From: a virus
DNA: 64,000 bases
Reading direction: 5' to 3' (one strand)
IMG/VR virus record: IMGVR_UViG_3300022918_000011
Location: 18,689 to 82,688 of that record
Shown: positions 3,498 to 15,349 of the stretch, piece by piece
How positions within the stretch are numbered: the first letter of the stretch is position 1
Layout: each line of letters starts with the position of its first letter
Program-made: the position numbers and the translations under genes
Notes under the pieces: generated by a model
Databases searched by the model: none
What the model saw: the letters and a program-made list of their open reading frames with translations, nothing else
Told to the model about the DNA's origin: nothing

Positions 3498-3899
3498 ATG
3501 AAAGCAGTAACCCTGTTGTTTGCCGTGCTGCTGTGCGCTGGATGTGTCGAGAAACGCCCGACCCCGCCGCCAGAAATATTCAAGCTTGGGTTGAACGGGT
3601 TCTACTGCCCAACCCAACATCTGATCTTCGCCCAGGCGTACATGTTCGCCATCCTCCATCGACCCCAGATCATGGAAGGCTGCACCACTGAAGGTGCGGG
3701 CAACTTTGTCACGCTGATCTCCGAGCGCCGCGACGGCGTGGCAGCTGAGGTTGAGCTGAACGGACGCCGCGTCTGGGTGCTGGACGTGCAGCTGGAGACC
3801 ACCGTAACCCCGCCGCCATCCGCCGCAGTGGTACCGCTCAAGGTACCGACTCTGCTGGTGCCTAAAGACGGGCTGCCACAGCATAAGGAGTACCTATGA
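3498..3899 (+). CDS. putative lipoprotein
   Basis: MKAVTLLFAVLLCAGC lipobox-like signal. Confidence 0.65.
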   Translation: MKAVTLLFAVLLCAGCVEKRPTPPPEIFKLGLNGFYCPTQHLIFAQAYMFAILHRPQIMEGCTTEGAGNFVTLISERRDGVAAEVELNGRRVWVLDVQLETTVTPPPSAAVVPLKVPTLLVPKDGLPQHKEYL

Positions 3900-4081
3900 A
3901 CGAGCGGGCTGAGCTGGAGAGGTTCAAGCAGGCGTTTGTTCATGCGGACTTGACGCTGGCAGATACACTGATCCCGGTCGCGACCTTCAAACACCTGACG
4001 ACCCAGCTGTTGTGGCTGGGCTGGCAGGCAGCGCTGACCTTCCGGGAAGGCCGCCTGGACGACGACGGCATCCCGCTCTAA
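3896..4081 (+). CDS. hypothetical protein
   Basis: TAAGGAG RBS, ATGA overlap. Confidence 0.7.
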   Translation: MNERAELERFKQAFVHADLTLADTLIPVATFKHLTTQLLWLGWQAALTFREGRLDDDGIPL

Positions 4082-4152
4082 ACGCAACACATTCCCATCC
4101 ACCAAAACCAAAATCCGAAAAATTTCTTTTCGGGTTCTCAGGAGTCACGCCT

Positions 4153-4329
4153 ATGCGATTCTTCGTCGATGACGAACGCCGCCTGGTACGCACCCATGAC
4201 AGTGTCGGCGGTTACCCCTTCAGCTCTTACAACTGGCGAGAGGTCACGCCGGAAGAGTACGACGCCTTCAGAAAAGTGACGGCGTCGATGAAGCCCAAAG
4301 AACTGCGCAAGTTGCGGGGGTTCGCATGA
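4153..4329 (+). CDS. hypothetical protein
   Basis: AGGAG RBS before ATG 4153 (MRFFVDDERR...). Confidence 0.65.
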   Translation: MRFFVDDERRLVRTHDSVGGYPFSSYNWREVTPEEYDAFRKVTASMKPKELRKLRGFA

Positions 4330-5894: not shown

Positions 5895-6511
5895 AGATCA
5901 AAGTCACCGAGTACCACATCAGGGAGTTCACTATCGAGCTCCCTGATTGCTTCACCACCTACGACAAGGTGGACAAGCACACCGAGCGCCAGCGTCTCAA
6001 GTACGACGGCCCGGTGCAGGAATCAGTAAGCCAGATCGAATGGAGTCATGTTCTGGAGACCAACCGGGACGTGGCCAAGACCTTGGCTCTGTTCAAGCCG
6101 ACGTTCCAGCACATCCCGTTCAACTTCAGCGGGTACGAGCGGGAGTGTTGGCTGCTGTACATCACTGACTGCCTCCCGGCGGGCGGCGCCTGGCTGAACT
6201 ACCGGACCTGGCTCAACACCGGAGCGTTCGAGCATCACCCTGACCGGGTGGCAGAATGCTTCGAAGACGGTGACAGTGAGCGTATCTACGTTCACTTCCG
6301 GGTTGCCCCGGAGGGCGATGTGGTTGCGCTGTGGGGTGAACCTGACCGCAGGGGGCTCATCAGCAGCTATCAGCACGTCGGCCAGCACGGTGACGCATCG
6401 CCTGAACTGGTCGCTGACTGGCGGGTGGCTACGGCAGCCGAGAAGGCTGACCTGTTCAAAGAATTGGAAGGTCGCGGTTACGTGATCGTGGATAAGGAAC
6501 CGAAAGCATGA
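5891..6511 (+). CDS. hypothetical protein with conserved phage C-terminal domain
   Basis: GTGA overlap; FR..PEGDVVAL...SYQHVGQHG...ELE.RGY pattern. Confidence 0.7.
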   Translation: MKIKVTEYHIREFTIELPDCFTTYDKVDKHTERQRLKYDGPVQESVSQIEWSHVLETNRDVAKTLALFKPTFQHIPFNFSGYERECWLLYITDCLPAGGAWLNYRTWLNTGAFEHHPDRVAECFEDGDSERIYVHFRVAPEGDVVALWGEPDRRGLISSYQHVGQHGDASPELVADWRVATAAEKADLFKELEGRGYVIVDKEPKA

Positions 6512-6831
6512 TTTTCGACACCGGAAACACCAGCGACAAAGCCGACGTAGGCATGCTGATTTTCAGCATCACCACTTACCTGCGGGATAACCATGGTGTC
6601 GGCTGCCAGATCGTCGACACCATGCGGGTTGCCGAGGAGGCAGCGTACTGGTTGCACGAGCTGGTTCTGGTAGATGACAGCTGGGACGGCGTCGTCTGGT
6701 ACGAATATCTGGAAAGCGCCAGCAAAGGATCTCTTGCACAAACGCTTTCCGGCTGTGTAGATTGCGAGGCTATCCCTGTACCTGCTGCGGTACGGCTCTG
6801 GCTTAAAATCAACGAGATCCAAATGAAATGA
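6508..6831 (+). CDS. hypothetical protein
   Basis: AAGGA RBS, ATGA overlap. Confidence 0.65.
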   Translation: MIFDTGNTSDKADVGMLIFSITTYLRDNHGVGCQIVDTMRVAEEAAYWLHELVLVDDSWDGVVWYEYLESASKGSLAQTLSGCVDCEAIPVPAAVRLWLKINEIQMK

Positions 6832-7073
6832 TTCACGTTATCTGTCGCAACGGGCAGCTTGAAATTCTCAAGCGTGAGGCGGTAAGCAGGCGTCGACGGT
6901 GGGACATCAGGGTTACATACGACACACCACTCGGTGAGCAGGTGATCCACATCAAGCCTGACAACAAATGCCGACTGCCTCAGTTAGCCAAGATAGTGTC
7001 AGACGCCATCCACGAAGACATACGCCTTACCGGCACCGTAAATAACATTGCCTGGGAAGCCAAGGGCAGATAA
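6828..7073 (+). CDS. hypothetical protein
   Basis: ATGA overlap; ends just before the MTase RBS. Confidence 0.65.
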   Translation: MIHVICRNGQLEILKREAVSRRRRWDIRVTYDTPLGEQVIHIKPDNKCRLPQLAKIVSDAIHEDIRLTGTVNNIAWEAKGR

Positions 7074-7083
7074 GGAGTTGCAC

Positions 7084-9042
7084 ATGCAGCAGTCGTCTCC
7101 GTACCACTATCCAGAACCCGCCAACTACCGCTGGAAAGGCGGCTTGATCATCGACAACTTCGCAGGCGGTGGCGGTGCCAGCACCGGCATCTCTCAGGCC
7201 ATCGGCCGCAGCCCCGACATCGCGGTCAATCACAACGTTGAAGCGTTGATGATGCACGAAGAGAACCACCCTACCACCCGCCATTACAACGAGTCTGTGT
7301 GGGACATCGACATCCGCAAGGCTACCGGCGGTGCGCCGGTGTTGATGGGTTGGTTCAGCCCAGATTGCACCCACTTCTCCGTCGCCAAAGGCGGCAAGCC
7401 GGTGAAGAAGGCCATCCGTGGCTTGGCCTGGATCGTCAAGAAGTGGTACGGGCAGAGCGACATGGCCATCCTGAAGATGGAAAACGTCGTCGAGTTCATG
7501 ACGTGGGGTCCACTGATTGCCAAGCGCTGCAAGGTGACCAAGCGCGTCATCAAGCTGGTGCCGGACGGCAAGGACAAGAAGGGCGAGGACAAATTCAAAG
7601 AGGTGGTCTGCGAGCCAGGCGAGTACGTTGCCTACCGCGATCAGGCTCTGGTACCGGACAAGAAGCGCGCCGGCAAAACCTTCCGCCAGTTCGTCAAACA
7701 GATGCGCGAAGCCGGTTACGCAGTCGAGTGGACTGTCAAAGGTATGGTAGCCAGCGACTTCGGCGATCCAACCACCCGCAAACGCTTCTTCCTGATGGCC
7801 CGTAAGGACGGGCTGCCAATCACCTGGCCTGCAGCTACCCATGGCAGCCCGAGGCTGGTGGCTGCCAACCCGGGCAAGTTGCAGCCGTGGAAGACGGCCG
7901 GCGACAACCTGGACTGGTCCATCCCATGCCCATCGATCTTCAATCGCAAGAAGCCGTTGGCTGACAACACGCTGCGCCGCATCTTCAAGGGCATCGAGAA
8001 GTTCGTCATCGGCGCCGGCGACAACGCCTTCCTCGTGAAGACGAACCACGGTGGCAACGAGTTCCGTGGCCAGTCAGCTGACGAGCCGCTGCAAACCATC
8101 ACCAGCAAGTTGGGTACCGGGGTGGCAGCTGTGTCGCTCACCAAGTTCAACGAGAACAGCATCGGCCAAGCCGCTGACCAGCCGCTGGACACTGTGATGG
8201 CGGGTGCTACACGGTTCGGCGCCGTACAGGCTGAGCTGCAGGTCGTGAAGGATCTGGATCAAGCCATGCATGCAGGCTTCATCGCCACCATCGATCACAC
8301 CTCCAACAAAAACCCGGCCACCGGCATGGACGAGCCGATTCCAACGGTGACATCCAAGGCGCGGCACATCCACGTTGCAGCGCTGCTCAAGCATTACACC
8401 GGTGTCGTGGGCCAGACTCTGGACAAGCCGCTGCCAACCATCACGGCAACCGATCACAATTCTGTGCTTGAGGTGACGGCGATGCATGTTCAGCGTGACT
8501 TCGGCGCCAGCATCGGCAGCCGGTTGTGCGAACCGCTCGGCGCTATCACGGCGGGTGGCGGTGGCCATGCAGCCATCATCGCTTCGTCTCTGGTGAAGCT
8601 GAAGGGCAGCTGCAACCACGGCCAGGCGTTGGACCGGCCGATCGATACCATCGCTGCCCAAGGCAACCACTACGCAGCGGTGCAGACCTTCCTTGAGGAA
8701 CAGTCGTTCCTTGTGAAGTTCTACGGCACCGGCGGCGCGGTGACTTGCGAGGCCCCACTGGACACAATCACCTCGAAGGGGCGGTTCGGTCTGGTCACCA
8801 TCCAAGGCATTGATTATCAGATCGTCGACATCGGCATGCGAATGCTGGAGCCGCACGAGCTGTTCAGCTGCCAAGGGTTCCCGGCCGACTACCGCCACGA
8901 GGTGGTGATGGGCAAGAAACTTCCGAAGCATGCACAGGTTCGCATGGTTGGCAACTCGGTACCTCCGGGGCTGGCCAGGGCGTTGGTGCAGGCGAACATC
9001 CCCAAGTGGGCACTCGAACGTAAACAGGCAGCAGTAGCATGA
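7084..9042 (+). CDS. DNA (cytosine-5)-methyltransferase, long phage type
   Basis: Motif I FAGGGG, motif IV SPDCTHFS, motif VI ENV, motif VIII RKRFF, motif X GNSV; AAGGAG RBS. Confidence 0.93.
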   Translation: MQQSSPYHYPEPANYRWKGGLIIDNFAGGGGASTGISQAIGRSPDIAVNHNVEALMMHEENHPTTRHYNESVWDIDIRKATGGAPVLMGWFSPDCTHFSVAKGGKPVKKAIRGLAWIVKKWYGQSDMAILKMENVVEFMTWGPLIAKRCKVTKRVIKLVPDGKDKKGEDKFKEVVCEPGEYVAYRDQALVPDKKRAGKTFRQFVKQMREAGYAVEWTVKGMVASDFGDPTTRKRFFLMARKDGLPITWPAATHGSPRLVAANPGKLQPWKTAGDNLDWSIPCPSIFNRKKPLADNTLRRIFKGIEKFVIGAGDNAFLVKTNHGGNEFRGQSADEPLQTITSKLGTGVAAVSLTKFNENSIGQAADQPLDTVMAGATRFGAVQAELQVVKDLDQAMHAGFIATIDHTSNKNPATGMDEPIPTVTSKARHIHVAALLKHYTGVVGQTLDKPLPTITATDHNSVLEVTAMHVQRDFGASIGSRLCEPLGAITAGGGGHAAIIASSLVKLKGSCNHGQALDRPIDTIAAQGNHYAAVQTFLEEQSFLVKFYGTGGAVTCEAPLDTITSKGRFGLVTIQGIDYQIVDIGMRMLEPHELFSCQGFPADYRHEVVMGKKLPKHAQVRMVGNSVPPGLARALVQANIPKWALERKQAAVA

Positions 9043-11994: not shown

Positions 11995-12393
11995 GTGGAC
12001 ATCACAGCGTTGATACAGGCTGCACACCCGGAGATGTCCGGGCCGCTGGACGACCTGCTGGACAGGAAACAGAGGCTCGCGATGGACAAGGTCAAGGTTC
12101 AGTTCGCAGCAGACCAGATGGTAACGCTGCAGCAACTGATCCGCCTGGCAAAGCAGGACGACCTGCCCTCGTTGAAACTGAGCGAGGCAGCGTTGGCTAT
12201 GCTGATGGAGAAGTTGACCATCCGCTGCCGCGCTGACGCCATCGAGCAGATCAGCCGGAACATGGGCCGTCCGCTGAGTCTGGTACCGCACTTCGTATGG
12301 GCGGTTGACCTGCACTTCTACCCCAAGCGGGTAGCGGTGCCGAGGTCGCCGAAAGCAATCACCAACATTCGAAAGGACATTCAAAGTGCCTGA
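11995..12393 (+). CDS. hypothetical protein
   Basis: AAGGT RBS, GTG start. Confidence 0.7.
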   Translation: MDITALIQAAHPEMSGPLDDLLDRKQRLAMDKVKVQFAADQMVTLQQLIRLAKQDDLPSLKLSEAALAMLMEKLTIRCRADAIEQISRNMGRPLSLVPHFVWAVDLHFYPKRVAVPRSPKAITNIRKDIQSA

Positions 12394-12826
12394 TGATAAA
12401 GACAACAAGACGCCAACCGGTCGCATTACCGATCCGCGCGCTGCGTTCGCTCTGCCGTATGGCAAGAGCCTGAACGGCATCGGCAAGGTCTATGTAAACG
12501 CGGACTTCTCCGCGATTGAGGAGCGTATCGCGGAGGGACTGATGGGTGCAGCCGCTGGCAGCAACCTGCTGGACCCCTACAAGATCATCGCAGCGGTGAC
12601 CCACATCGTCATGTACAGCGAGGTGACCAAAGAGCAGCGTCAGTGGGCCAAGAGTTACTTCTACCTGAACTTGTACTCCACGGAAGGCTTCAGCCTGCCG
12701 CCGCGCGTCCAACTGTTCGCCATCTACACGACCGAGGAGATCGTGCAGATTCAAATCGATACGAAGTGGCCAGGCACCCTGGACCTCTACGATCACATCG
12801 CCAACTTTTACAAGCCGAAGGTATAA
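12386..12826 (+). CDS. miniature family-A DNA polymerase-like protein (palm/fingers fragment, no motif C)
   Basis: TPTGRIT, ADFSAIEERI (motif A), DPYKIIAA...EVTKEQRQWAK (motif B region) and KWPG in PolA order; AAGGA RBS. Confidence 0.7.
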   Translation: MPDDKDNKTPTGRITDPRAAFALPYGKSLNGIGKVYVNADFSAIEERIAEGLMGAAAGSNLLDPYKIIAAVTHIVMYSEVTKEQRQWAKSYFYLNLYSTEGFSLPPRVQLFAIYTTEEIVQIQIDTKWPGTLDLYDHIANFYKPKV

Positions 12827-12828
12827 CC

Positions 12829-13605
12829 ATGCAGTTGAACAAGAAGCTCAAAGAAGAAATCATCCTCAAGCTGGTCGGCAAGGCCACCAAGAAGCACGCT
12901 CAGGCCATGAGTAAGGCAGCGGCATCGCTGAACCTGCTGTGGCGCCAGGCGGTGATCAAGCACGCCCAGCAAGCCATCCCGGAGCTGCCGCAGGAACGGT
13001 GGGCAGACTTGATCCAGTCGCAGACCTTCAAGGGTTTCGGCAGCCTGTCTGTGAGCACGGTAGCGCCCGCGCCACTGAAGGGTCAGGACAACCGCACGGT
13101 CACCAACGACATTGGCGACGCTGGTCGGCGCATCCAGTGGGAGCGGGCCGCCACTGAGAAGTATCAGTCGATCAAGGTCACGATGGCTGACAACGGTTGG
13201 AGCGGGTTCTTCAGCGTGTGCGGCGTTATGTGCCGGGACCATTTCCTGAACGTCGGCTGGCCGCTGCCCTTCCATGACCTGCCTGCGTTTAGCTGGATGT
13301 CGGTAGTCGACCTCACCGGCAAGTCTACAGGTCCGGCAGCGGCCTGGTCTCTGGACACCGCACCGCTGGCAGAACAGGCAAACGCCCTGACCGCCAAGTT
13401 CCAGAAGGTGCTGGTGGAAGCCGCCGAGTTCTACGACTCCCTGCAGATCATCATGGCGTCGATCAACACCGATACCCAGTTGATCGATCAGTTCCCCGAG
13501 GCTGCCAAGTTCCTGCCGGAGCAAGCGCCGAAACGCAATCAGCTAGCACCTACTGAACTGATTGCCAAAGCCCGCCAGATGCTTGAGACAGGCATCCCTA
13601 ACTGA
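12829..13605 (+). CDS. Nmad5-like (nucleotide-modification-associated domain 5) protein
   Basis: N-terminal MQLNKKLKEEII and C-terminal INTDTQLIDQFPEAAKFLP resemble the Nmad5 ends (T..L...WPE...LP). Confidence 0.6.
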   Translation: MQLNKKLKEEIILKLVGKATKKHAQAMSKAAASLNLLWRQAVIKHAQQAIPELPQERWADLIQSQTFKGFGSLSVSTVAPAPLKGQDNRTVTNDIGDAGRRIQWERAATEKYQSIKVTMADNGWSGFFSVCGVMCRDHFLNVGWPLPFHDLPAFSWMSVVDLTGKSTGPAAAWSLDTAPLAEQANALTAKFQKVLVEAAEFYDSLQIIMASINTDTQLIDQFPEAAKFLPEQAPKRNQLAPTELIAKARQMLETGIPN

Positions 13606-13942: not shown

Positions 13943-13971
13943 TTGACCGCATGGCGGCCACCCCATAGGAT
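13943..13971 (+). promoter_or_regulatory. sigma70-like promoter TTGACC-N17-TAGGAT
   Basis: Canonical spacing upstream of the helicase; overlapped by inverted repeat GGCGGCCA...TGGCCGCC. Confidence 0.6.
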
Positions 13972-14011: not shown

Positions 14012-15349
14012 ATGGGACTCAATGTTGGTCAACAGGCAGCTGTTGACGAAACTCTGCATGAGATCTTTGAAGGTGAGTACAGCCCGAACCAAGGGCATAC
14101 GATCATCGGCGAAGGCGGTACTGGCAAGACGTTTTGTGTGACAGAGATCGCTCGTGTGGTGATCGAGGCAGGGCACAGCGTGCTGTTCGCAGCGCCCACC
14201 CACAAAGCCCTCAAGCAAATTCAGCGGTCGTGCCGTGAGAACGGTTTGATCAGCAACAACATCGGCTTCGCCACCATCTACAGCGCCCTGGGCCTGGGGA
14301 TGATGCCGGCGGATGAAGACAAGTTCATCACCCCGTTCAAGGAAAGCATCATCGGGAACTACGACGTTCTGGTCGTGGACGAGATCTCGATGATGCCCAA
14401 GCTGCTAGTCGAACGTTACCTGCTGCCAGAGCTGGAGCAAACCGGCACCTACCCGCTGTTCATGGGTGACGACATGCAGCTGCCGCCGGTCAAGGAAGCA
14501 AAGGCTGTGGCCTTTGACCTGTTCAAGACCTCGGAGCTGACAGAGAACCAGCGGCAGCTGACCAACGAGGACGGCACGCCGAACGGCATCCTGCAGCTGG
14601 CCCGCGCCATCCGCCCTTGCATCAAGGAGAAGCGCGTCTTCCGGTTCGACTTCACCGTCGAGAACAACGTGACGTGCGTGAAGGACAAGGACTTCCTGTC
14701 CACCATCCTCGACCACTTCACCCTCGACACCGATCTGGAACAGACCCGGGTACTTGCCTGGCGCAACTTCCGGGTCGATGACCTGAACCGCGCGATCCGC
14801 AAGAAGGTGTACGGCCCCGACGCCGCTCGCTTTGAGATCGGCGAGCGGGTCATCACCGGCGGCTCGATCAAGGACGCGAACGACGAGGTCGTGTTGACCA
14901 GTGCCGAAGAGTGCATCGTCATGGCCGAGCGTGAAAGCCAGCTGGTCTACCGCGCCACGAACGAGCCGTGGAAGACCCGCCTGCTGACGCTGCGCCCGTG
15001 CTACGCCGGACAGAAGCAAGTCTTCGCCCATGTGCTGCACGAGGACGAAAAGGAACGCTACAACAACGTGATGGGCAAGCTGAAGAAGAAAGCGCTGGAT
15101 GCCGTGGGCAATGAGCGCGGCCTTTACTGGCGCCGGTTCCACGAGTTCCGCGATGCGTTCGCTGACATCCGCTACTGTTTCTGCATGACCACTCACCTCG
15201 CGCAGGGCAGCACTTACGACACGGTGTTCGTCGATGTGAAGGACATTCTCGAGAACCCGCAGCCGATGGAGCGGCGCAAGCTGATCTACGTTGGCTTCAG
15301 CCGGCCTCGCAAGGAGCTGGTTATCAACAAAACTAGCTTCATCGCTTGA
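14012..15349 (+). CDS. Dda/RecD-like SF1B DNA helicase
   Basis: GEGGTGKT Walker A, APTHKA, VVDEISM, GDDMQLPPV, HLAQGSTY, YVGFSR. Confidence 0.9.
   Translation: MGLNVGQQAAVDETLHEIFEGEYSPNQGHTIIGEGGTGKTFCVTEIARVVIEAGHSVLFAAPTHKALKQIQRSCRENGLISNNIGFATIYSALGLGMMPADEDKFITPFKESIIGNYDVLVVDEISMMPKLLVERYLLPELEQTGTYPLFMGDDMQLPPVKEAKAVAFDLFKTSELTENQRQLTNEDGTPNGILQLARAIRPCIKEKRVFRFDFTVENNVTCVKDKDFLSTILDHFTLDTDLEQTRVLAWRNFRVDDLNRAIRKKVYGPDAARFEIGERVITGGSIKDANDEVVLTSAEECIVMAERESQLVYRATNEPWKTRLLTLRPCYAGQKQVFAHVLHEDEKERYNNVMGKLKKKALDAVGNERGLYWRRFHEFRDAFADIRYCFCMTTHLAQGSTYDTVFVDVKDILENPQPMERRKLIYVGFSRPRKELVINKTSFIA

Follow-up and report, generated by a model that had tools for sequence, protein, structure and literature searches.

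A small phage gene resembling part of family-A DNA polymerase next to an Nmad5-like gene

The mini-PolA gene

The stretch of DNA considered here (the window) comprises the final 64 kb of a virus record of 82,688 bp, IMGVR_UViG_3300022918_000011 of IMG/VR, which is about 95% complete. Within a tightly packed plus-strand operon of early and replication genes, the window contains a gene for a protein of 146 amino acids (aa), here called mini-PolA, which very probably is a stand-alone derivative of a family-A DNA polymerase (PolA). The open reading frame (ORF) has the marks of a real, intact gene of the expressed type. A preliminary description of this DNA had reported an intact frame with a ribosome-binding site, overlapping the gene upstream, and all of these features are present (Table 1). 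Two relatives of 148 aa share the same N-terminus, supporting the GTG as the start. The early genes run from the C5 cytosine methylase through small unknown genes, mini-PolA, the Nmad5-like gene and the 105-aa gene to the Dda-type helicase and the primase-like protein, an order identical to that in the Pseudomonas phages Lana and PMBT3.

Table 1. Positions in the window of mini-PolA, its parts and the genes discussed with it (nt, nucleotides)
Feature	Position	Strand	Description	Basis
Mini-PolA gene	12386..12826	+	146 aa, GTG start, TAA stop	ORF list, sequence, homologues, PF00476 match
Shine-Dalgarno-like AAAGGA	12372..12377	+	8 nt before the mini-PolA GTG	Sequence reading
Mini-PolA residues 1-37	12386..12496	+	Variable, probably disordered, carries TPTGR	pLDDT (predicted local distance difference test) below 50
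Mini-PolA residues 34-101	12485..12688	+	Only demonstrable PolA homology: motif A strand/helix, D-x-H helix, motif B/O-helix	
Mini-PolA residues 102-146	12689..12823	+	Conserved, confidently modelled helical part; no detectable PolA alignment	
Upstream 132-aa gene	11995..12393	+	8-nt overlap with the mini-PolA gene	ORF list
Nmad5-like gene, 258 aa	12829..13605	+	ATG 2 nt past the mini-PolA stop	PF18757, phrog_15487
Resident complete PolA, 1228 aa	23976..27662	+	5'-3' exonuclease, 3'-5' exonuclease and polymerase	Pfam, own motifs A/B/C
C5 cytosine methylase	7048..9042		First in the early run, followed by small unknown genes, mini-PolA and the Nmad5-like gene	
105-aa gene			After the Nmad5-like gene	
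Dda-type helicase	14012..15349		After the Nmad5-like gene	
Primase-like 953-aa protein			After the Nmad5-like gene	
Nmad5-like proteins concerned by the label 'DNA polymerase'	12829-13605 (window); 6438-7241 (L001); 6372-7175 (L002); 3512-4273 (L010)			

Similarity to family-A DNA polymerases

The regions of mini-PolA that correspond to motif A (KVYVNADFSAIEERI) and to motif B with the O-helix (QRQWAKSYFYLNLY) are PolA-like far above chance. The protein alone matches PF00476 with an E-value of 2e-4 and 20.9 bits, below the gathering cut-off of 34.3 for that family, with residues 33-108 falling on positions 151-230 of the 381 in the profile. Individually, 13 of 14 family members match PF00476 at E ≤ 0.01, the best with an E-value of 1.9e-11. 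A family profile made from an alignment of 14 sequences (A1) was compared with the sequences in the PDB and found 73 distinct entries at E ≤ 1; all of the 60 that were listed are family-A polymerases, and the best match, to positions 378-447 of the Klenow chain (E 2e-9, 40.8 bits), extends from motif A through the O-helix. Aligning A1 in hhalign with four real PolAs (A5) gave a probability of 98.8% and an E-value of 1.2e-16 over mini-PolA residues 34-101. The motif A of mini-PolA reads DFSAIE (residues 40-45) and is aligned with that of Klenow and of the four PolAs, while the O-helix pattern R-x3-K-x3-[FY]-x3-Y is represented by R85, K89, Y93 and Y97. On the familiar Klenow numbering and the chain alignment, we take D40, E45, R85, K89, Y93 and Y97 to be the counterparts of Klenow D705, E710, R754, K758, F762 and Y766. 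The motif A and motif B assignments made in the preliminary description are therefore borne out by PF00476, by Klenow and by hhalign alike.

Two further motifs that had been proposed there found no support in the profile comparisons. TPTGRIT had been read as the T.TGRLSS motif; the stretch is present in only 3 of 18 family members, the closest ones, lies where the model has a pLDDT below 50 and is aligned in conflicting registers, BLASTP placing the mini-PolA copy against TGRLSS of a real PolA and the closest relative, P0002, being placed in a different register. No PolA alignment was found by profile (Pfam, hhalign) on the N-terminal side of residue 33. IDTKWPG had been read as the Y...YPG helix. 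It cannot be equated with that helix, because the alignments to PolA, by sequence or by profile, all end by residue 101-108, and no alignment beyond that point was found in Pfam, in the PDB profile search or with hhalign. Within the reach of these tools, the last 45 or so residues are specific to the family. Residues 11-39 (12416-12502) show a likeness to a beta-propeller (NHL/'Pizza') repeat in one PDB match with an E-value of 1, probably by chance. Three long proteins (1051-2299 aa) match residues 9-70 with 8-12 stretches each and were dropped from the family; together with the 'Pizza' match, they suggest that this stretch resembles such a repeat by coincidence.

An AlphaFold2 model computed on A1 has a mean pLDDT of 74, with residues 1-37 below 50. 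From residue 61 to residue 146, seven of the nine means over blocks of ten residues are 92-97, the other two being 77 (91-100) and 75 (141-146). Every element of at least four residues in the model is helical, and residues 102-146 contain three helices, the block means over residues 101-140 being 88-97. In a search of 48,161 chains that was independent of Foldseek, Klenow came first with a Z score of 3.2 and no other fold exceeded 2.6. The model fits a shortened fingers subdomain without proving it, and homology is argued here from sequence rather than from structure.

Absence of the remaining polymerase parts

A six-frame search of the whole 82.7-kb genome with PF00476 gave just two matches, one in the resident PolA (165 bits) and one in mini-PolA. 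Motif C, the thumb and the 3'-5' exonuclease are absent from mini-PolA and, by the same search and by reading of motifs, are found elsewhere in the genome only in the resident PolA, a single chain of 1228 aa that itself carries motifs A, B and C. Mini-PolA ends 38-45 residues past the last residue that is aligned with PolA (101-108), and Pfam gave no PolA signal in the genes that flank it. Since nothing beyond motif B is present, its sequence indicates that mini-PolA cannot be a polymerase. The same had been said in the preliminary description from the lack of the motif C Asp, and it stands, with no other PolA piece found in the six frames. This also rules out a frameshifted second polA gene, which had been considered as a candidate. 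The resident PolA is itself unusually long, with the 5'-3' exonuclease fused in front, and its motif C reads Y-D-E. In most PolAs this motif reads H-D-E.

Origin

The A1 profile was scored on four enzymes of bacterial type, with 40.8 bits for Klenow and 46.2, 41.6 and 34.8 bits for three other PolAs. On the resident PolA it scores 2.6 bits, and BLASTP gave no match between mini-PolA and the resident PolA. The motif A of the latter reads DFNGQE, unlike the DFSAIE of mini-PolA. The low score on the resident PolA compared with that on Klenow, together with the lack of a BLASTP match, argues that mini-PolA is not a recent duplicate arising within this genome, which agrees with what had been proposed from the difference in motif A. 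Mini-PolA appears instead to descend from a Pol I-like gene of another lineage, either as an old acquisition or as an old fragment.

Distribution of the family

An exhaustive search of 1.84 billion representative proteins returned 15 at E ≤ 1e-3, three of them the long proteins mentioned above and 12 of them small (93-155 aa, mini-PolA included). The 11 further small relatives are metagenomic representatives of clusters at 50% identity, and a word-index search added two more of 148 aa, with 55-56% identity. Family members range from 93 to 159 aa. Contigs were looked up for ten of these thirteen relatives and reach 80-90 kb. The cultured carriers are Lana (gp58) and PMBT3 (AUM59663); a tblastn search of phages found the small protein only in these two, which account for four of the seven matching records, the other three being real polymerases. 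Scans of viral contigs for the family found only L003 and L004. A metagenome scan gave three loci, all full-length PolAs, and a genome scan gave another three, two of which are the motif region of bacterial-type PolA in long ORFs, with L013 unassigned. A search for fused or longer forms of mini-PolA gave none at E ≤ 0.01 among 421 candidates. The family is thus far confined to Lana/PMBT3-like Pseudomonas siphophages with genomes of 80-92 kb and to uncultured relatives of these.

In G001 (L003 5617-6330) the mini-PolA frame lies in frame behind an extra segment of about 118 aa, with no stop between, and has its own GAGGAG and ATG at the usual start of the small protein; by eye, the extra segment resembles two helix-turn-helix units. 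Three related contigs (G007-G009; L026-L028) encode a Dda that is 43% identical and are classed as provirus in IMG/VR, so that some relatives in a phage group that looks virulent may be integrated, or the class may be wrong. In a protein atlas, two clusters of short proteins bearing PF00476 were seen at a score of 0.90, one of 175 aa, viral, with 100 members and the family on 11% of them, the other of 203 aa, actinobacterial, with 78 members and the family on 86%. Stand-alone PolA pieces may occur in other lineages.

Conservation and selection

The mini-PolA frame is open in all seven genomes or loci in which it is found (G000, Lana, PMBT3, G001, G002, G005 and G006). Conservation by site was counted over 18 family sequences. 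Tyr97, Gln84, Val80 and Ala70 are kept in all 18, and Arg85, Lys89, Asp63 and an aromatic residue at position 93 in 17. Kept less often are the His at position 65 (15 of 18), Glu45 (14) and the motif A residue Asp40 (13). Conserved columns are also present in the C-terminal part (I113, T115, Q121, L134 and Y135). From the L-L-D-x-H helix to the end the core is constant in length, and the N-terminus varies; in G005 and G006 the frame begins just before the D-x-H helix, without motif A.

Among the three nearest pairs (Lana, PMBT3 and L004; 43-53% aa identity), the ratio of nonsynonymous to synonymous substitution rates (dN/dS, Nei-Gojobori) is 0.44-0.53 for mini-PolA, compared with 0.22-0.30 for Dda and 0.34-0.47 for the Nmad5-like protein, these ratios being rough since synonymous sites are saturated, even in Dda, with proportions of synonymous differences of 0.41-0.64 over the genes compared and 0.46-0.64 in mini-PolA, and the available pairs of DNA sequences are not close. 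The pattern as a whole indicates a protein that evolves fast and is constrained all the same, with the constraint centred on the O-helix face and not on the metal-binding Asp. The gene appears to be old and maintained. It also appears to be dispensable, as related phages exist without it. That it is maintained had been suggested before, and the seven open copies, the near-invariant O-helix and an apparent dN/dS below 1 support this. Ragged lengths together with a neutral dN/dS had been named as the signs of a decaying gene, and here the outcome is divided: the N-termini are indeed ragged and motif A is altered in places, but the core is constant and dN/dS is not neutral.

The Nmad5-like neighbour and other nearby genes

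The product of the gene at 12829-13605 matches PF18757 over residues 172-251 (E 6.3e-10, 39.9 bits, with a cut-off of 27) and phrog_15487 with an E-value of 1.2e-31. In its AlphaFold2 model (pLDDT 86, predicted template modelling score 0.78) a beta domain is inserted into a long helical hairpin, and a fold search with this model returned only generic long-helix matches, with Z scores of at most 5.9, and no polymerase fold. The protein has no PF00476 match, no sequence relative in the PDB and, by hhalign, no profile similarity to the mini-PolA family. With no PF00476 match, PDB relative or polymerase fold, we reject its reading as a polymerase. Nevertheless, both PMBT3 records, the RefSeq entries of Lana, phiR18 and KPP25 and phrog_15487 give the homologous proteins the label 'DNA polymerase' or 'DNA polymerase A', whereas the GenBank copies of Lana, phiR18 and KPP25 call them 'hypothetical protein'. 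The label may have drifted from the adjoining small PolA-like gene. For annotation, this would mean that the real PolA-like piece is an unannotated small gene beside a mislabelled Nmad5-like gene.

The two genes are adjacent, with mini-PolA first, in six of the seven genomes that carry mini-PolA (G000, Lana, PMBT3, G002, G005 and G006). In four genomes the mini-PolA stop and the Nmad5-like start are 0-4 nt apart, and G005 and G006 have a gap of about 0.2 kb. G001, which is 100% complete with terminal repeats, has mini-PolA without the Nmad5-like gene; UAntarctica, Jeremy, KPP25 and G007 have the Nmad5-like gene without mini-PolA; and G003 (80% complete) and G008 (90%) have neither, the fragments G004 and G009 being uninformative. 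Within a single syntenic lineage the two genes are thus strongly associated, yet they are separable. A complex prediction for the Nmad5-like family (A4) with the mini-PolA family (A1) scored 0.00 in both runs, with the verdict 'no answer', and nothing is drawn from it. The metagenomic relative P0016 (155 aa) has at residues 135-154 a tail resembling the pattern L-x-x-A-R-x-x-L-x-x-G-I-P that the Nmad5-like family keeps at its C-terminus, a tail which its cluster-mate P0029 does not have; the tail could have come from a gene-fusing deletion, or could be chance.

The 132-aa gene upstream of mini-PolA has no significant family match in Pfam or phrog, PF06752 appearing with an E-value of 0.05, under its cut-off. 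A homologue is present in L003, and in UAntarctica a homologue, whose translation was inspected, stands directly 5' of the Nmad5-like gene. A search for sigma-70-like promoters between 9000 and 16000 gave one match, at 13943-13971 just 5' of the Dda gene, which is not significant as 1.8 are expected from shuffled sequences. Three public sequencing runs were found to contain this stretch; they are all DNA runs, with no RNA run among them, and the best match is a metagenome of leaf litter, from which the virus may have come. About 3.5 kb before the window, a 151-aa ORF (G000 14722-15177; L034 723-1175) shows a weak likeness to helicases, tblastn with the phage Dda giving 29.6% identity over 54 aa (E 0.28) and Pfam giving AAA_30 below its cut-off (E 0.067, 13.4 bits). 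Should this ORF be a helicase fragment, it would be a second piece of a replication enzyme in the genome besides mini-PolA.

Possible function

Mini-PolA seems unable to copy DNA, and yet a group of phages of Pseudomonas has retained it, which makes a new role probable. The reading that we put forward, and to which we would give an even chance, is that it is a non-catalytic, stand-alone PolA derivative that serves as a nucleotide- or DNA-binding accessory protein. Such a protein would combine motif A, on a short strand of the palm, with the helices of the fingers (D-x-H and O-helix) and about 45 family-specific helical residues. In Pol I, the Arg, Lys, aromatic residue and Tyr of the O-helix, together with the D-x-H helix, contact the incoming deoxynucleoside triphosphate (dNTP). 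Because the best-kept positions of mini-PolA are these contacts, and the motif A Asp is dispensable, we infer that the nucleotide-binding face has been kept. The fingers face for a triphosphate or nucleotide, or for contact with a template, could then be used without catalysis, and the protein could serve the early replication and nucleotide module in an accessory or regulatory role, usually co-translated with the adjacent Nmad5-like protein and not strictly dependent on it. Ligand binding as the actual mechanism is a tentative proposal, which we hold to be somewhat less than evenly probable. A more specific suggestion, and a rather unlikely one as it stands, is that a stand-alone fingers domain was exapted to bind a ligand and, with its O-helix triphosphate pocket retained, would be a sensor, carrier or sink for a nucleotide, be it a dNTP, a modified dNTP or a nucleotide signal, or would pose as host Pol I to some factor of the host, in this way controlling replication, modification or anti-phage defence in Lana/PMBT3-like phages. 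If so, it would be the first non-catalytic role of a family-A polymerase subdomain as an independent protein.

Several observations weigh against an accessory protein that binds nucleotides or DNA. The N-termini are ragged, and motif A is absent from G005 and G006 and missing or altered in several metagenomic members. One member, P0008, has lost the Arg and the Lys of the O-helix, and the conservation of this helix is in part an effect of the search, since searching by similarity selects for this motif. Evolution of the protein is rapid: it is only 27-33% identical to its counterparts in phages whose Dda is 51-54% identical, and the gene is missing from UAntarctica and G007 and from G003 and G008 (80-90% complete). 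We know of no lone fingers subdomain for which useful binding of dNTP has been demonstrated. The structural likeness to the fingers is weak as well. A structure search for the palm and fingers of PolA had been suggested as a check, and its result is mixed: family-A polymerases are the top Foldseek matches and the profile search is strong, but the best Foldseek E-value is only 0.68, and VIA-align to PolAs gives Z scores of 2.3-3.6 and root-mean-square deviations of 3.0-4.7 Å for 43-62 aligned residues between 43 and 108, the leading matches having Z scores of 3.0-3.6 over 52-62 residues.

Much of this would also be expected of a decaying remnant, that is, a functionless left-over of a polA gene after its displacement or capture, weakly tolerated or with a frame that happens still to be open. 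Lengths from 93 to 159 aa, a motif A lost or changed in 5 of 18 members, the member without the O-helix Arg and Lys, the absence of the gene from relatives and its fast divergence all fit such an origin, and polymerase genes are often replaced in phages, according to the available text of PMC11348598. We nevertheless consider a remnant distinctly improbable: the frame is open in seven of seven genomes despite saturated synonymous sites, the core is constant in length, specific residues are near-invariant among sequences that are 27-55% identical, and dN/dS is below 1 in the nearest pairs. In addition, no flanking PolA fragments are found in any frame, and a start with a Shine-Dalgarno sequence and translational coupling is conserved. 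Far less credible still is a split polymerase, in which mini-PolA would supply the fingers in trans to a palm and thumb encoded elsewhere. PolAs split between exonuclease and polymerase exist in S-SBP1-like phages (PMC10201439, in the part of the text available), and the gene next door is labelled 'DNA polymerase (A)' in PMBT3 and in the RefSeq entries of Lana, phiR18 and KPP25. The resident PolA, however, has motifs A, B and C in one chain, the genome has no other piece matching PF00476, and the Nmad5-like neighbour has no PolA signal by Pfam, PDB profile search, hhalign or fold search. A split-polymerase subunit is the only one of the rival explanations that the data contradict.

The remaining alternatives concern partners. 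Mini-PolA could be an adaptor whose fingers bind a nucleotide or DNA, possibly modified, and which works only with the Nmad5-like protein in DNA modification or a related pathway. Its position immediately 5' of the Nmad5-like gene in six of seven carriers speaks for this, as do the mini-PolA relatives P0022 and P0025 and the Nmad5-like proteins P0020 and P0019, which come from contigs of equal size (13259 and 3991), and the tail of P0016, which weakly resembles the C-terminus of the Nmad5-like protein (hhalign E 0.0096, probability 4%). Nmad5 genes are moreover found in the thymidine-hypermodification cassettes of M6-like phages, as given in the available part of PMC9476957. The complete genome G001, on the other hand, has mini-PolA with no Nmad5-like gene anywhere, UAntarctica, Jeremy, KPP25 and G007 have the Nmad5-like gene only, and all of the adjacency comes from one syntenic lineage and amounts to about one observation. 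A search for the thymidylate-synthase family found no hydroxymethylase of that type in the genome, no modification enzyme was seen beyond the C5 methylase, and the alignment of Nmad5-like proteins has no invariant acidic residue, so that an obligate partnership seems unlikely. Alternatively, mini-PolA could be a mimic or decoy of host Pol I, with a free fingers surface of bacterial type that would titrate a factor of the host, be it a defence sensor, an inhibitor or a partner of Pol I, or would interfere with host Pol I. The profile scores 40.8 bits on Klenow against 2.6 on the resident PolA, with Klenow as the bacterial reference, and the early position, small size, fast evolution and patchy presence of the gene are typical of genes for host interaction. 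Nmad5 proteins can trigger the Tmn defence system in Dhillonvirus, as reported in the available text of PMC11846954. For a surface mimic, however, there would be no need for O-helix residues that are buried or contact a ligand to be the best conserved. Literature searches brought up no defence system that senses PolA fingers, and we know of no such system having been reported; we regard mimicry as quite unlikely.

The subdomains of a polymerase are normally seen as parts of one machine, and a fingers-only protein beside a full phage polymerase would show that a subdomain folds and serves alone. If mini-PolA did bind a nucleotide or a host factor, it would be a new type of small phage accessory protein and, in the case of nucleotide binding, a compact natural scaffold for nucleotide recognition. 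Since gp58 of Lana and AUM59663 of PMBT3 occur in cultured phages, mini-PolA is directly testable. Of the papers on these two phages, the main text of the PMBT3 paper does not contain the words polymerase, modification, methyl or restriction, that of the Lana paper does not contain polymerase or methylase, and neither discusses the gene.

Comparison with known systems

With respect to the Nmad5 neighbourhoods of M6-like phages described in PMC9476957, to the extent that its text is available, the gene downstream of mini-PolA likewise passes the Nmad5 cut-off. Unlike those neighbourhoods, this one showed no thymidylate synthase in a search for that family. Most of the Nmad5-like genes found here have no mini-PolA partner.

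The fingers of bacterial Pol I, as in the Klenow, Bst and Taq large fragments, offer the closest comparison. Mini-PolA has the strand of motif A and, after it, the D-x-H helix and O-helix in the order found in these enzymes, and they can be aligned with Klenow at E 2e-9. Mini-PolA differs in having about 68 alignable residues compared with an enzyme of about 600 aa, in lacking motif C, the thumb and the exonuclease, in a motif A Asp that is not conserved throughout the family, and in a family-specific C-terminal part of 45 aa. Its fingers are also shortened relative to Klenow, 59 residues of the model covering 89 residues of the latter.

Among phage and mobile-element polymerases, the split T7-like PolA of S-SBP1-like phages (PMC10201439, available in part) shares with mini-PolA the feature of a PolA domain encoded as a small phage gene of its own. 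In the split enzyme, however, pieces lying side by side form a complete polymerase, whereas mini-PolA has no complement and a complete PolA is encoded 11 kb away. In the available parts of the literature on stand-alone fingers, truncated PolA and Nmad5, no fingers-only protein is described, and the split, truncated and diverged PolAs that are described keep the main catalytic residues where active sites are given (PMC10201439, PMC11348598). Mini-PolA also resembles CCPol and divPolA1/divPolA2, which the available text of the same two papers presents as family-A polymerases, reduced or diverged, from mobile elements and from phages. The staphylococcal mobile-element CCPol is truncated only in that part of its exonuclease domain is missing (PMC10201439), and in divPolA1 the palm retains the main catalytic residues, and polymerase activity is expected of it (PMC11348598). 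Mini-PolA, by comparison with CCPol and divPolA1, dispenses with motif C altogether.

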